This document shows positions 23,927 through 28,986 of a DNA stretch of 38,866 bases, one piece after another. The stretch's first letter is position 1. Each line of letters starts with the position of its first letter. The position numbers and the translations under genes are program-made. Source of the stretch: Promethearchaeota archaeon (lineage in GTDB: Archaea; Asgardarchaeota; Lokiarchaeia; Sigyniarchaeales; SOKP01). The notes under the pieces were generated by a model that saw only the letters and a program-made list of their open reading frames with translations, made no database searches and was not told the origin of the DNA. Location of the stretch: contig JBHLNT010000023.1 of NCBI GenBank assembly GCA_048941265.1, forward strand, positions 1 to 38,866, in the 5' to 3' direction.

Positions 23927-25432
23927 ATGAAAAAATCGAAATTAAATTTAGTCATCTCTATTTTAGTTTTAGCAATAATCCTAATTTCTCCTTACTCAAG
24001 GAATCCGATTAAACTTTCGAAAGAATCTAGTTCAAATAATCTTACAGAATCTCTAAAATCAGCAGATAAGAGCGGAGGAGGATATATTATGGATACGGAT
24101 GCGGATTTTTCATGGATAGAGATAAATATAACTGGAACGAATATGACTGCTATTTCTGATGAAGATGATGCACATGACAGTATATCATTTACAGTTTGGG
24201 ATTTTGAGTATTACGGAATTACATATAACGAGATATTTGTCAGCACAAATGGATGGATGAGTTTTACTGATGAAGGAAGTACTAGTTTTTGGCTTTCAGA
24301 AATACCAAGCCGAGATATAGAGAATAAAGATTGTGTAGCTTTGTTGTCAGAAGATTTAAATTTAGATAATTCTGATTTTGGAAATGGGGATGTGTTTTAT
24401 CAATTTCTTGGAAGTTCTCCTAATAGATACTTAGTGATTGAATATTACCAGGCTTATGATTTTCATAACGAAGAACTTGTAGGAGATTTCGAAGTAATTT
24501 TCTATGAAAACGGAACTATTAAATTTCAATATAAACTGGTAAATAATTTGGGCGGATTTGAACCGATCATTGGTCTTGACCACGGAGATTTGACAAATTA
24601 TAATTCATACGATGCAATTTTACCACTTTATGAAAAAGCAATTTCATTCGAATTCAATCAAATGATAAATGCATATACCCCTACATTTAATGAAAACGAC
24701 CAATTTTGCTGGAAAGTCAATAAAGTTAATCATACAGCGATGGAAACGGATTTTGGCCCCGACTGGGAACAACAATTTGGATTGATACCAGATATGGAGA
24801 TCAGCGAGAAAACAAAGATAAATGTAACTGTAATTACTGAAAATGCTACTCATTGGGAAATAAAATATGATATGTGGAACTGGACTAGTACCAGTAAGAA
24901 TTTCGGAGCATTACCCGAGGTTGATTCCATCTTAACTTTCCGAAAAGAGCCCCTAACCTATACCCAGAAGCATAATTTAACCAATTTCTTTCCACTACTT
25001 CTACCAAAATATCCTGATTTATACTTAGAGAAAGTAAACCTATCAGATTCATATTTAGATCCCGTATATTTGTCAAGTACCAAAGAAACACTATTAATTG
25101 CTACATTTCTTGGTTCATTATTAATTAGTTGCGCCGGAACATATAATGAAAATGGATTACTAATTAAACTCGTTATCACTGCTTATGATGGTTCTAACTT
25201 TTATGATGCTCTTGAAATGAATTTGTGTAGCTGTGTAGTGAGTGCGCCAGTCGGTGGCGATGGCGGTGGTGGCGGTGGCGGCGGTGGCGGTGGTGTAAAA
25301 GAGGAAGCATTGCCTCTGGCCTTGATTATTGTTGTTTCCAGCATTGGAGTAGCAGCAGTTATCATCTTCGTGTTAATTAAAAAAGGAATAATCAATACTT
25401 CCAAGCTTCGAGTAAGAAGAACAACCGAATAA
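23927..25432 (+). CDS. Membrane-anchored surface protein with NIDO-like domain and poly-Gly linker
   Basis: Signal peptide; FEYYGITYNEIFVSTNGWMSF...FEVIFYENGTIKFQY; G11 linker followed by TM and basic tail. Confidence 0.7.
   Translation: MKKSKLNLVISILVLAIILISPYSRNPIKLSKESSSNNLTESLKSADKSGGGYIMDTDADFSWIEINITGTNMTAISDEDDAHDSISFTVWDFEYYGITYNEIFVSTNGWMSFTDEGSTSFWLSEIPSRDIENKDCVALLSEDLNLDNSDFGNGDVFYQFLGSSPNRYLVIEYYQAYDFHNEELVGDFEVIFYENGTIKFQYKLVNNLGGFEPIIGLDHGDLTNYNSYDAILPLYEKAISFEFNQMINAYTPTFNENDQFCWKVNKVNHTAMETDFGPDWEQQFGLIPDMEISEKTKINVTVITENATHWEIKYDMWNWTSTSKNFGALPEVDSILTFRKEPLTYTQKHNLTNFFPLLLPKYPDLYLEKVNLSDSYLDPVYLSSTKETLLIATFLGSLLISCAGTYNENGLLIKLVITAYDGSNFYDALEMNLCSCVVSAPVGGDGGGGGGGGGGGVKEEALPLALIIVVSSIGVAAVIIFVLIKKGIINTSKLRVRRTTE
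25253..25294 (+). repeat. GGY trinucleotide repeat encoding GGD+G11
   Basis: ggt ggc gat followed by 11 ggc/ggt codons. Confidence 0.9.
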
Positions 25433-26066: not shown

Positions 26067-27582
26067 ATGAGTTATAAATTACCAGATGAAAAAGATTTAG
26101 AAGCGATGATTGGTATAGTTGGTAAAAACTATGCCACTAATAATAAAGCGATTACTGCATCATATCTGGCCAAATCAGTGATGGGTTTGGAAATCAACAA
26201 TCCATTTCGGAAGTTGACTAATTAGCCAAATCCCTGATATTGTAGTACGGCCAAAATTCGTTGAAGAAATAAGGAAAATTTTAATTTATTGCACTGCTGA
26301 AAAAATTGCGGTAAGTCCAGTTTCTGCGGGATTATCTGGTGGATTTGCTTGTCCAACTATCAAACCTGGTGGTGTTTTACTCGATTTAAGCAGAATGGAT
26401 AGAATCATTGAAGTTGACGAAGAGAATCGTTTTTGCATCATAGAGCCAGGAGTTACAAATGGTAGATTATGGGCGTATATGCACAAAAATCACCCTGATT
26501 GGGCTCCTCCTATTGCTGACGGTGCACCTCCAGCAGCTACAGTTATGGGAGACGCGATTGACAGAGGCTTTGCACTTTACACTTCAAGTGTAGGACCTCA
26601 AGGAGATAATTTTATGTGTGGAGAGATTGTTTTTCCAAACGGCGATGTAGTACGAACAGGTTCGTGGGCTCTTCCCTTTGCTAAGCCATTCTATAAGTAT
26701 GGGATTGGTCCAGATATGTGGTCATTTTTGATGGGCTCACAAGGAACTATGGGTGTTATTACAAAAGCAGCAGTTAAGATTTATCCTCATCCAAAACATA
26801 AGACCGTTGTAGCTTGGGGTATGTCTAATCCTCAGGATATGCAAGATTTAACCCTTGAAGTTGCCAAGCAAGAATTTGGAATCAGTCATAACACTGTTAT
26901 GGTCCAAGGTGGTAATTATCCACTTGTAATGACACGTTGGCCTAAAGATAAAGTACCTCATGATTATGAATTCTATAAAGAAATCGGTGTTTCACAATGG
27001 TGGATGAATTGGGAATGCTGGGCACAAACTCAGGAAGAATTGGATTATGTTGTTAAAAGAATTAATTCAATGGCAGAGGATTACAAAAAGAATAGAGCTA
27101 AAGATCCAGAAGAAATGAAACCATGGGAATTGCATCCAAAACAAATCGCAAGCAGAATGAAAAAACCAAATAAAATCGCTATTCCTTACTCTTTCTGGGA
27201 AGCAGGCTTTTTGTTCATAACTTGGTATACTCCCTGGAATGAATGTGCGGAATTCGCAGATGTGTTTGTTAAAGCATCCGAAAAATGGGGATTTCCACCA
27301 ACATTATGGATTGCCAGTATAGAACGTTGCAGACAAGCGATCTGTATGCCAATTGTGTGTTTTGACAGTACAAAACAAGAAGATTTCGAGAGGGTTCAAG
27401 ATCTTAATCGAGAGATTACGGAATATGGTTTACCAAGAGGTTGGCTTAATTATAGACCAGACCCTTATGTCCATATCGAAGCTTATTATCAAGCAGGGAT
27501 GTACTGGAAGTACCTTAGGGCCTTTAAAAAGCTGGTAGATCCTAATATGATAATGCATCCTGGAAGACTTGCTCTTCCATAA
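26067..27582 (+). CDS. FAD-binding oxidoreductase (VAO/PCMH/GlcD superfamily); exon 1 26067-26192 and exon 2 26224-27582, predicted 494 aa
   Basis: Exon 1 is 42 codons (MSYKLPDEKDLEAMIGIVGKNY...VMGLE); exon 2 starts SQIPDIVVRPKFVEEIRKIL...GGVLLDLSRMDRI, in frame with ORF 26395..27582; GSQGTMGVIT and DPNMIMHPG. Confidence 0.85.
26193..26223 (+). other. Putative 31-nt bulge-helix-bulge (tRNA-endonuclease-type) intron in a protein-coding gene
   Basis: GGT-[TTGG]-AAA-TCAAC...GTTGA-[CTAA]-TTA-GCC; cleavage after the second nt of each bulge restores the frame exactly. Confidence 0.85.
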
Positions 27583-27603: not shown

Positions 27604-28986
27604 ATGGCTAAAACTGGAATGGATAGATTAAAAGAATTAGAAAAAGATATATTTAAATGTATTCACTGTAAAGCTTGTAGATTTGCGTATTCTGGTGAAC
27701 CTGATAAAGAAGGAATTGGTGAATTCACAGGAAAACAAGGAACTGTACTTTATGAAGGGATGGTTGACGCGTGTCCTGCCGGAATAGAGTATGGTTGGGA
27801 AGCTTTTTGGAATGCGGGAAAAATTTGGATCGCACGATCCATCTTAAATGGCGACTTAGAATTTACCGAAGAAGTCAGAGATGTATTGATGCCCTGCATT
27901 ACTTGCGGACAATGTTCTGCCCAGTGCGAGAATAAAGTACCCACTGTTGATGTTATTGAATCATTGCGCGCTGCCTGTCAAGAAGCGGGAATTCCTATGA
28001 TCGATAAACATCAATTAGTAGATCGATTGGTAAAGGAATTAAACAATCCTTATGGTGGGAAGAAAGACGAACGATTTAAATGGGCTAAAGATGCAGGTTT
28101 AGGAAAATACATTGACAATAAAGATGCTAAAATTGCCTATTATGTCGGATGTACTGCGAGTTATCGTCAAGTTGAAGTTGCTATCGCAACAGCAAAAGTT
28201 TTTGAGGCATTAGGAATGAATTTTAGCTTAGTAGGAGATGAGGTATGTTGCGGCAGCCCCTTCTTCAGAATAGGAGCCGTAGATACTGCACAAGAATTAA
28301 TGAATAAGAATCTAGAATCGTTTAAAAGATTCAAAAAAGTGTATTTTTCTTGTGCTGGTTGCTATCGTACCATCACAATTGATTACCCAAAATGGATGGC
28401 TGAAGGCCAGAAATTAGGTTTTAAGACCCAACATGCTTTTGAATTAATTTCTAAACTGATTACAGAGGGAAAAATAAGTTTCAAACCAAACAAAGAACTA
28501 AAAGGCAAAGTTGTCACCTATCATGATCCTTGTCATACTGGGAGACACTTTGCTATTGATATGGAACAGGAAATGATTAAGGAATCGAAAAATCTTATGT
28601 TCGATATGAGGAAAATCAATCAAAGAATCGAAGAATGGTTTGAAATTCCAAGAGTGATCTTAAGGAAATTAGAGGAAGATGTCGGAATAAAGTTTATAGA
28701 AATGTACCGTATTAAGCTCAATAGCATGTGCTGTGGAGCAGGTGGTGGTGTTAGGGCTGGTTATCCTGACTTTAGTTTGAGAACCGCAAGTTTACGATGT
28801 GATGAGGCGAATGCCGTAGGAGCAGATATTTTGACCACAGAATGCCCATTCTGCTGGAGAAATCTAACAGATGCTAATGAACTTTATAATCACGGCTTAC
28901 AAGTAATGGGTGTTCTTGAAATGATAAGTAAGTACAATCTCTTAGACCTAAAGGAAAAACCAACTGAAAAAGAACTTTTAGAATAA
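27604..28986 (+). CDS. (Fe-S)-binding oxidoreductase subunit with CCG domains (GlcF/HdrD-like)
   Basis: CIHCKAC...CP, CITCGQCSAQC, YYVGC, EVCCG, YHDPCH, MCCGAGGG, ECPFC; GGAGGTG RBS. Confidence 0.9.
   Translation: MAKTGMDRLKELEKDIFKCIHCKACRFAYSGEPDKEGIGEFTGKQGTVLYEGMVDACPAGIEYGWEAFWNAGKIWIARSILNGDLEFTEEVRDVLMPCITCGQCSAQCENKVPTVDVIESLRAACQEAGIPMIDKHQLVDRLVKELNNPYGGKKDERFKWAKDAGLGKYIDNKDAKIAYYVGCTASYRQVEVAIATAKVFEALGMNFSLVGDEVCCGSPFFRIGAVDTAQELMNKNLESFKRFKKVYFSCAGCYRTITIDYPKWMAEGQKLGFKTQHAFELISKLITEGKISFKPNKELKGKVVTYHDPCHTGRHFAIDMEQEMIKESKNLMFDMRKINQRIEEWFEIPRVILRKLEEDVGIKFIEMYRIKLNSMCCGAGGGVRAGYPDFSLRTASLRCDEANAVGADILTTECPFCWRNLTDANELYNHGLQVMGVLEMISKYNLLDLKEKPTEKELLE

Follow-up and report, generated by a model that had tools for sequence, protein, structure and literature searches.

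BHB (bulge-helix-bulge) introns in the mRNAs of protein-coding genes are very rare in archaea. One such intron interrupts the crenarchaeal cbf5 pre-mRNA, which encodes a pseudouridine synthase (Watanabe 2002; Yoshinari 2006; Yokobori 2009, PMC2738675). The locus described here, a gene that encodes an FAD-binding oxidoreductase in an Asgard archaeon of the Lokiarchaeia type, resembles cbf5, as those reports portray it, in having a short BHB intron (here predicted) within its coding frame, in belonging to a lineage with a heteromeric EndA, and in the patchy gain and loss of the intron among relatives. It differs in its Asgard host and in the metabolic function of the gene, its splicing is a prediction from DNA sequence, and, in other species, two further positions of this gene are also occupied by BHB inserts. 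Another described case is HVO_1309 of Haloferax volcanii, where a BHB intron in the 5'UTR of the mRNA was demonstrated both in vivo and in vitro; by the account of that paper, the cbf5 intron was the only other one reported by 2020 (PMC7714728). There an mRNA is a substrate of the tRNA splicing endonuclease, as is predicted for the FAD gene, but the HVO_1309 intron, as described, lies in the untranslated leader and breaks no reading frame.

Within the Asgard archaea, multi-intron tRNA genes have been described that point to repeated gains at many positions (bioRxiv 10.64898/2026.10.13.758758). As far as that preprint goes, these introns share with the inserts reported below the kingdom, the motif, the presumed enzyme and the repeated gains at many positions; they lie, however, in tRNA genes, and the terms "mRNA" and "ribosomal protein" are absent from its available text. 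Full-text searches, confined to main texts and largely to journals outside subscription, turned up no account of BHB introns in Asgard genes that encode proteins. A parallel also exists in eukaryotes, where the HAC1 and XBP1 mRNAs are cleaved by Ire1 and ligated by a tRNA ligase or by RtcB in a stress-regulated manner. As there, a short frame-changing mRNA intron would be removed by proteins only, at paired stem-loops and with a tRNA-splicing ligase, whose involvement is predicted in the present case. HAC1 and XBP1 differ in the nuclease, Ire1, in the RNA motif and in their regulation by stress, there being no sign of regulation at the locus studied here.

This locus lies in a stretch of 38,866 nt (hereafter the window), and all of its features are on the forward strand. 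An upstream reading frame opens at ATG 26067 and runs to a TAG at 26223-26225, giving 52 aa, while a downstream frame, open from 26218 to 27582, overlaps it by 5 nt (26218-26222). A preliminary description of this DNA had proposed that the two frames encode one protein and are separated by a BHB intron, and all the BHB and frame coordinates that it gave were found to be correct when the sequence was read again. Exon 1 (26067-26192) comprises 42 codons (MSYK...SVMGLE), and 42 of its 42 residues coincide with the N-terminus of P0004, a homolog of 495 aa. Exon 2 (26224-27582) comprises 452 codons and a stop, with homologs of 494-495 aa, and encodes from its residue 4 to its residue 146 a FAD_binding_4 domain (Pfam PF01565, E 1.4e-20). 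Between the two lies the insert, a predicted intron of 31 nt (26193-26223), whose 3' splice site would be straddled by the stop codon of the upstream frame. Excision of 26193-26223 leaves 494 codons and a stop with no internal stop; since an A follows both segments, removal of 26194-26224 would yield the identical mRNA, so that the junction is placed to within one A.

The motif that defines EndA substrates, two 3-nt bulges on opposite strands flanking a 4-bp helix, is present at the borders of the insert. Its central helix (H) pairs TTGG at the end of exon 1 (26187-26190) with CTAA in the intron (26218-26221) and includes one G-U pair. On either side are the 5' bulge AAA (26191-26193), with a predicted cut at 26192/26193, and the 3' bulge TTA (26222-26224), with a predicted cut at 26223/26224. 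Both flanking helices are also present: the inner helix (h', 26194-26217) pairs TCAAC (26194-26198) with GTTGA (26213-26217) over 5 bp and closes a hairpin with a 3-bp apical stem, TCC/GGA, and the loop ATTTC, and the outer helix (h) pairs GGT (26184-26186) with GCC (26225-26227). The outer helix proper has just 3 bp, one of them G-U. It is prolonged by an exon-exon extension, ATCAG (26174-26178) with CTGAT (26234-26238), which belongs to the RNAalifold consensus and is paired in 11 of 11 sequences.

EndA cuts each bulge of a BHB between its second and third bases. This rule agrees with the intron boundary given by ARAGORN in two clean tRNA-Ala genes of the same genome, in which that program, a noisy caller there, reports an intron in 18 of its 27 tRNA calls. 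Applied to the FAD gene, the rule places the junction exactly where the protein places it, as had been claimed, and the resulting frame has 494 codons. The protein side of this comparison comes from a search with exon 2, in which 242 of 3,232 candidates scored as relatives at E ≤ 0.001. The nearest full-length homologs measure 494-495 aa and most homologs 494-497 aa, and the close ones are named in their sources as FAD-binding oxidoreductases of Promethearchaeati, Lokiarchaeota and Promethearchaeota, which bears out the earlier assignment of the host to the Asgard archaea. Promethearchaeati is the kingdom that contains the Asgard phyla. In all 14 homologs inspected, S or A follows MGLE immediately, with neither a gap nor any surplus residue in between. 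The gapless ...MGLE-SQIPD... expected of orthologs is thus what the alignment gives, and none of these 14 sequences carries the roughly ten additional residues that had been named as evidence against an intron. Within the genome itself, 15 paralogous ORFs span the junction in alignment, the best of them free of gaps within 8 residues of it.

The same alignment bears on the idea that the mRNA retains the insert and the ribosome copes with it, either through a frameshift within 26218-26222, which would add about ten residues, or through a hop of the kind known from T4 gene 60. The 5-nt overlap of the two frames makes a shift formally possible. As for a hop, the take-off site of gene 60 consists of a hairpin and a stop after the take-off codon, and a hairpin and a stop likewise lie downstream of the last codon of exon 1. 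Extra residues at this position are nevertheless seen in 0 of 14 homologs, and the insert is 31 nt long here and 32 nt in ten other species (see below), so that the direction of the required shift would have to differ between them, whereas excision is indifferent to length. Nor does the GAA that precedes the insert find a matching landing codon, the triplet being ATT here and AAG or AAT in the others. Decoding by the ribosome would, moreover, leave unexplained the BHB geometry found here and at the other sites in the FAD gene and in the gene for ribosomal protein L11, and we consider it very unlikely.

BHB-shaped motifs as such are common, with 96,301 of them genome-wide at lengths of 12-100; the improbable part is that a BHB coincides with the protein junction, rather than the BHB shape alone. 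With helices of 3, 4 and 3 bp and a length of 31, a BHB occurs at 1,098 of 10,023,748 genome positions on both strands (1.1e-4), and at 190 of them (1.9e-5) if the inner helix has at least 5 bp. The window holds three such matches at length 31, only one of which falls at a broken gene. By folding energy alone, the segment does not stand out. The minimum free energy (MFE) fold of 26176-26235 (-14.8 kcal/mol, z -1.79, with 9 of 200 shuffles as good) is not the BHB, as in it GGGUUUGG pairs with CCAAAUCC of exon 2 to form an exon-exon helix. Over 76 nt, the fold constrained to the BHB reaches -17.8 kcal/mol vs -19.2 kcal/mol for the MFE, and the BHB lies above the MFE by 0.7-1.6 kcal/mol in 9 of 11 sequences, by 2.8 kcal/mol in G060 and by 6.1 kcal/mol in G104.

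The insert is genuine DNA, as judged from a comparison of the insert region with contigs from four DNA runs. Run X1 contributes a contig of 259 nt (26087-26345), and run X3, which belongs to a different study, one of 516 nt (26087-26602); both span the insert without a mismatch or a gap. X1 or X3 may be the source sample of the assembly. X3 also holds a contig, diverged by about 15%, in which 26193 is joined straight to exon-2-like sequence and which therefore represents an intron-free relative. That the insert arose in assembly or sequencing might be thought of in view of the nature of the source genome, a metagenome assembly of 361 contigs with a completeness of 91% and a contamination of 4.8%. 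Such an artefact, whose detection was to have spoken against the intron according to the preliminary description, is extremely improbable: runs belonging to two studies yield independent contigs with the identical insert, even if one of these runs is possibly the source sample, and ten other genomes carry a diverged, homologous insert at the same site.

These ten genomes emerged from a wider survey. Among the first 40 relatives searched, the insert was present in none, their open frames measuring at least 496 aa vs 454 aa here. In the set covering the whole order (154 genomes, 123 of which have an ortholog at E ≤ 1e-150), ten species of another genus have open frames of 453-455 aa that start at the same residue, and their DNA, once read, has a homologous insert, 32 nt long, in exactly the same place. 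An eleventh candidate, G071, is located at a contig end and is kept outside this count. Each insert-bearing genome has one match only at E ≤ 1e-150.

The survey also allows the gene to be judged as a functional unit, a matter on which the absence of the insert from all 40 of the relatives first searched could be read differently, namely as a sign that the insert has inactivated the gene, leaving a pseudogene or a product made only from the first downstream Met (26395). Read with the standard code, the gene is indeed broken, and gene callers give truncated products in relatives: the public call P0012 begins with MVRPK, and P0016 and P0045 begin at the first downstream Met, just as a miscalled annotation had been predicted. 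However, removal of the insert leaves 11 of 11 frames intact, at 493-495 codons, and both exons are open in all eleven species with no decay of the frame. Synonymous sites are saturated (pS 0.62-0.74) at a pN of 0.07-0.12, dN/dS is 0.04-0.08 in 18 of the 19 pairs listed, which are those with a computable dS and which share that saturation, and the median pN/pS across 55 pairs is 0.12. With spliced frames intact and dN/dS low, the gene is in use and under purifying selection. There is, in addition, no second ortholog in those genomes, a start at 26395 would drop 57 residues of exon 2 and with them about 54 of the 143 residues matched by FAD_binding_4, and the exact BHB register would arise by chance at a rate of about 1e-4. 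Loss of function is thus highly improbable.

Returning to the BHB intron, its structure is retained across these species. The central helix of the ten others is TTAG/CTAA, with Watson-Crick pairs throughout, and the central and outer helices are paired in 100% of cells in 10 distinct sequences, one outer G-C having changed to G-U. Over the whole BHB alignment, 96.3% of cells are paired, vs 21-47% when the partners are slid against each other. Covariation in the FAD intron (no double changes, four pairs changed on one side, pairing matched by 124 of 500 shuffles) speaks neither for nor against the fold, because the sequences are 94% identical. Synonymous change was measured in the ten species as the proportion of codons with a shared residue but a differing nucleotide. 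It is down to 0.03 in codons 41-48, compared with 0.14 in codons 33-40, 0.17-0.45 in the remaining 8-codon bins and 0.29 over codons 1-300; the bin with the lowest value is the one that holds the junction. Differences between introns average 0.10. This collapse around the insert points to a constraint on the surrounding RNA, so that flanking exon codons appear to be held by the structure of the splice site. A recent lateral spread with co-conversion, rather than structural selection, could alternatively account for how well the intron and its flanks are conserved.

The enzymes that such a splicing reaction would call for are present. As the preliminary description had supposed for the host, the genome encodes tRNA-splicing proteins, namely two with a tRNA_int_endo domain (107 and 69 bits) and one RtcB (569 bits), all above the curated cut-offs. 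The EndA subunits map to C258:57304-57528 and C323:14914-15162, and RtcB to C70. The Asgard EndA has been described as an (alpha-beta)2 enzyme with an L1 loop that is tied to broad substrate specificity (PMC5829648), and the two EndA-type genes found here fit this arrangement. In the proposed mechanism, exon 1 would provide one strand of the central helix and the intron the other, with the outer helix formed by exon-exon pairing and the inner helix by the intron hairpin. A heteromeric (alpha-beta)2-type EndA would then cut within both 3-nt bulges, and RtcB would ligate the exons into the continuous frame of 494 codons, ...MGLE-SQIPD.... Taken with the junction and its conservation, the sequence makes it very probable that 26193-26223 is a BHB intron in the pre-mRNA of this single-copy gene. 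Its earlier reading as an mRNA intron for the tRNA machinery is thus upheld at the level of the sequence, and the splicing event itself, with its cleavage, its ligation and the enzymes that act in it, is what we infer from that.

The attribution to EndA and RtcB being of this kind, the insert might be excised from RNA by another nuclease and ligase, or the BHB might be incidental to a small mobile hairpin element. The latter notion draws on a feature that recurs among the inserts of different genes, a short hairpin whose 5-nt loop ends in TC, which hints at a common element. No further copy of the 31-mer was found in the genome, the next-best blastn-short matches covering 13-15 nt, and, as far as its sequence goes, the insert is no repeated element. 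On the other hand, it is by cutting where the BHB rule prescribes that the protein is restored, all three intron alignments counted have their central helix 100% paired, and 31 nt are too few for a self-splicing intron. We regard these possibilities as unlikely, and removal by the tRNA-splicing enzymes as the better account.

The FAD gene has been entered elsewhere as well. In G112, a 30-nt insert with a stop lies between FLFI and TWYTPW, with the central helix GTTC/GAAT and an inner helix of 9 bp, and in G150 an in-frame, stop-free insert of 30 nt lies between FPPV and MWIASIE, with the central helix CCAG/CTGG. In both, BHB cuts yield the junction seen in orthologs. A second gene was found when, as the preliminary description had suggested, the genome was scanned for BHBs at apparent frameshifts, here by looking for BHB motifs that fuse ORFs. 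In the same genome, the sole gene for L11 (rpl11) is interrupted by a BHB insert of 30 nt that contains an in-frame stop (G000:C196:21625-21654, minus strand). Its MFE fold, at -24.2 kcal/mol, is the BHB itself, with an outer helix of 7 bp and an inner helix of 8 bp, or 9 bp in the register with a canonical 4-bp central helix.

L11 is present in 143 of the 154 genomes of the order and is interrupted in at least 38 of these 143, going by frames of at most 152 aa away from contig ends; none of the interrupted genes is in families f2-f4, where all L11 frames reach at least 162 aa. Among 29 interrupted N-termini inspected, four sites were recognized, after ..TGG(S), GGPPI, GPAV and GPTGIN. Some genes have two inserts, and G103 has three by eye. 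Altogether, the two genes alone account for at least seven insertion sites, with as many as three inserts in roughly the first 35 codons of rpl11. When motif and peptide pattern are at their strictest, BHB cuts restore the L11 peptide in 5 of the 29, and in 12 of the 29 with a looser pattern and no requirement for an inner helix. A relaxed motif restores 20 of the 29, but this figure was set aside as evidence, as cuts displaced by -3, -2, -1, +2 and +3 restore 6, 7, 7, 13 and 8, respectively (at +1 the product is unchanged). Given this poor specificity, weight is placed only on the strict-motif cases and on the covariation counts. Among the 8 sequences with an insert at the GPTGIN site, pairing stands at 94.6% of cells vs 24-41% with partners slid, three pairs show double changes, and 8 of 500 shuffles score as high. 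Among the 5 with an insert at the GPAV site, it stands at 96.9% vs 13-51%; double changes are seen in two pairs, and each of the four central pairs varies with pairing kept.

The neighbouring L1 gene served as a neutral control and is uninterrupted in nearly all of 37 matched relatives, the exceptions being one match with an internal TAA and one that is split. By this comparison L11 looks like a hot spot for insertion. No homing-endonuclease ORF was found beside rpl11 in the 3.4-kb locus of this genome.

Genome-wide, the scan for ORF-fusing BHBs led to two confirmed cases, the FAD gene and L11. The true register gave 455 such BHBs vs 427-474 in six displaced registers, and 877 vs 826-925 under looser limits; there being no excess in the true register, the statistics do not point to a large number of such introns in the genome. 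When filters for coding score and lack of a start codon were added, the numbers were 49 vs 32-37, a weak excess over a background made up of adjacent genes. Fusions spanned by paralogs were not enriched either (41 vs 26-39 in controls; gap-free ones, 6 vs 7-12). A Pfam check of 18 further top candidates, leaving aside FAD and L11, found none with both halves in one family at contiguous profile positions. One candidate, C190:630-729, has both halves in one domain and was rejected as an intron, since the 33 profile positions skipped match the 100 nt and its appearance is frameshift-like. An excess of in-frame BHBs within long ORFs (1,755 vs 1,401 and 1,409) was not counted, as codon periodicity can produce it. 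Such introns are therefore not numerous in this genome, and FAD and L11 are the only top-ranked candidates that held, in a scan that is blind to in-frame stop-free inserts, to first exons of fewer than 30 codons and to relaxed motifs.

Taken together, the sites in both genes incline us, by a small balance of probability, to the broader view that protein-coding genes in one family of Lokiarchaeia have repeatedly received BHB mini-introns of 28-37 nt and that the tRNA-splicing machinery routinely splices mRNA. If so, mRNA intron gain would be ongoing in these Asgard archaea, with a small mobile hairpin element, or else the shielding of conserved DNA sites from homing endonucleases, perhaps as its driving force. 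The predicted introns extend the archaeal mRNA-intron cases to the Asgard archaea, to a metabolic gene and the gene for an essential ribosomal protein, where they would have been kept for long under purifying selection. They also offer a testable system for how introns enter coding genes and persist there without a spliceosome.

For annotation, the consequence is that gene callers truncate or split such genes, including rpl11, which is a widely used phylogenomic marker. Inserts that are in frame and free of stops, such as that of G150, would pass as insertions of 10 residues. Downstream of the FAD gene, and outside the intron, an adjoining gene on the same strand (27604-28986) encodes a CCG/4Fe-4S protein (PF02754, E 7.5e-23; PF13183), the customary partner of flavoenzymes of this sort, which is likely to be the iron-sulfur partner subunit of the oxidoreductase.

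The exon sequence flanking the 31-nt bulge-helix-bulge (BHB) insert of the FAD-binding oxidoreductase gene itself appears to be constrained. Among the ten intron-bearing relatives, synonymous change in the codons around the insert (window 26163-26247) amounts to 0.03-0.14, versus 0.29 gene-wide. A conserved exon-exon helix, formed by ATCAG (26174-78) and CTGAT (26234-38), lengthens the outer helix, and the complementarity of these flanks appears to be retained in intron-free orthologs through a paired A/T swap.

Other BHB inserts are found in protein-coding genes. The FAD oxidoreductase gene carries two further insert positions in other species, each occupied by 30 nt on the minus strand: in the related genome G112 the insert contains a stop (locus L077:453-482), while that of G150 (L078:399-428) is in frame and stop-free, so that annotation would show it as a 10-residue insertion. 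Outside the window, the gene for ribosomal protein L11, present as a sole copy in the genome to which the window belongs (G000), likewise harbors a BHB insert, 30 nt long and containing a stop codon in frame (L034:1026-1055, i.e., G000:C196:21625-21654, minus strand). Across related genomes, the L11 N-terminal domain has four insert sites, with up to three inserts in one gene, and compensatory base changes are present in these inserts.

The hairpins of these mini-introns were compared (window 26199-26212, L034:1026-1055, L077, and L078), together with that of a tRNA-Ala intron (G000:C107:2861-2963). Their size is similar across different genes and the tRNA-Ala intron, most stems measuring about 8-9 bp; in the protein-coding genes the hairpin loops are 5 nt long and in most cases have TC at the end (ATTTC, ATCTC, AAATC, AATTC, and ACCTC). 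This likeness between genes may mean that the hairpins descend from one source or that they have a recognition feature in common. Two tRNA-Ala(TGC) genes of G000 (C107:2861-2963 and C222:233-337) contain a clean BHB intron, of 29 and 30 nt, respectively, in both cases at the non-canonical position 32/33. ARAGORN detects only 27 tRNAs in this 5-Mb genome and calls an intron in 18 of them, many of these calls being doubtful; introns probably hide part of the tRNA set from detection.

Broken genes of other kinds were also encountered. A thiamine-pyrophosphate (TPP) enzyme gene of G000 is split into two frames (L102, C190:23-939), with the break at contig positions 630-729. The 100 nt separating its halves match in length the 33 TPP_enzyme_C profile positions missing between them; the break therefore resembles a frameshift, either real or due to an assembly error, rather than an intron. 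In the control search of relatives with the gene for ribosomal protein L1, which neighbors L11, one L1 gene has an internal TAA (G014:C334:6241-6879), and another appears as two abutting matches with about 30 residues missing (G020:C224:10096-10715).

Upstream of the FAD oxidoreductase gene, the window contains a 501-aa ORF (23927-25432) with hydrophobic segments at both its N- and C-terminus and a run of 13 glycines interrupted by one aspartate, GGDGGGGGGGGGGG; its product resembles proteins that are secreted or anchored at the cell surface.
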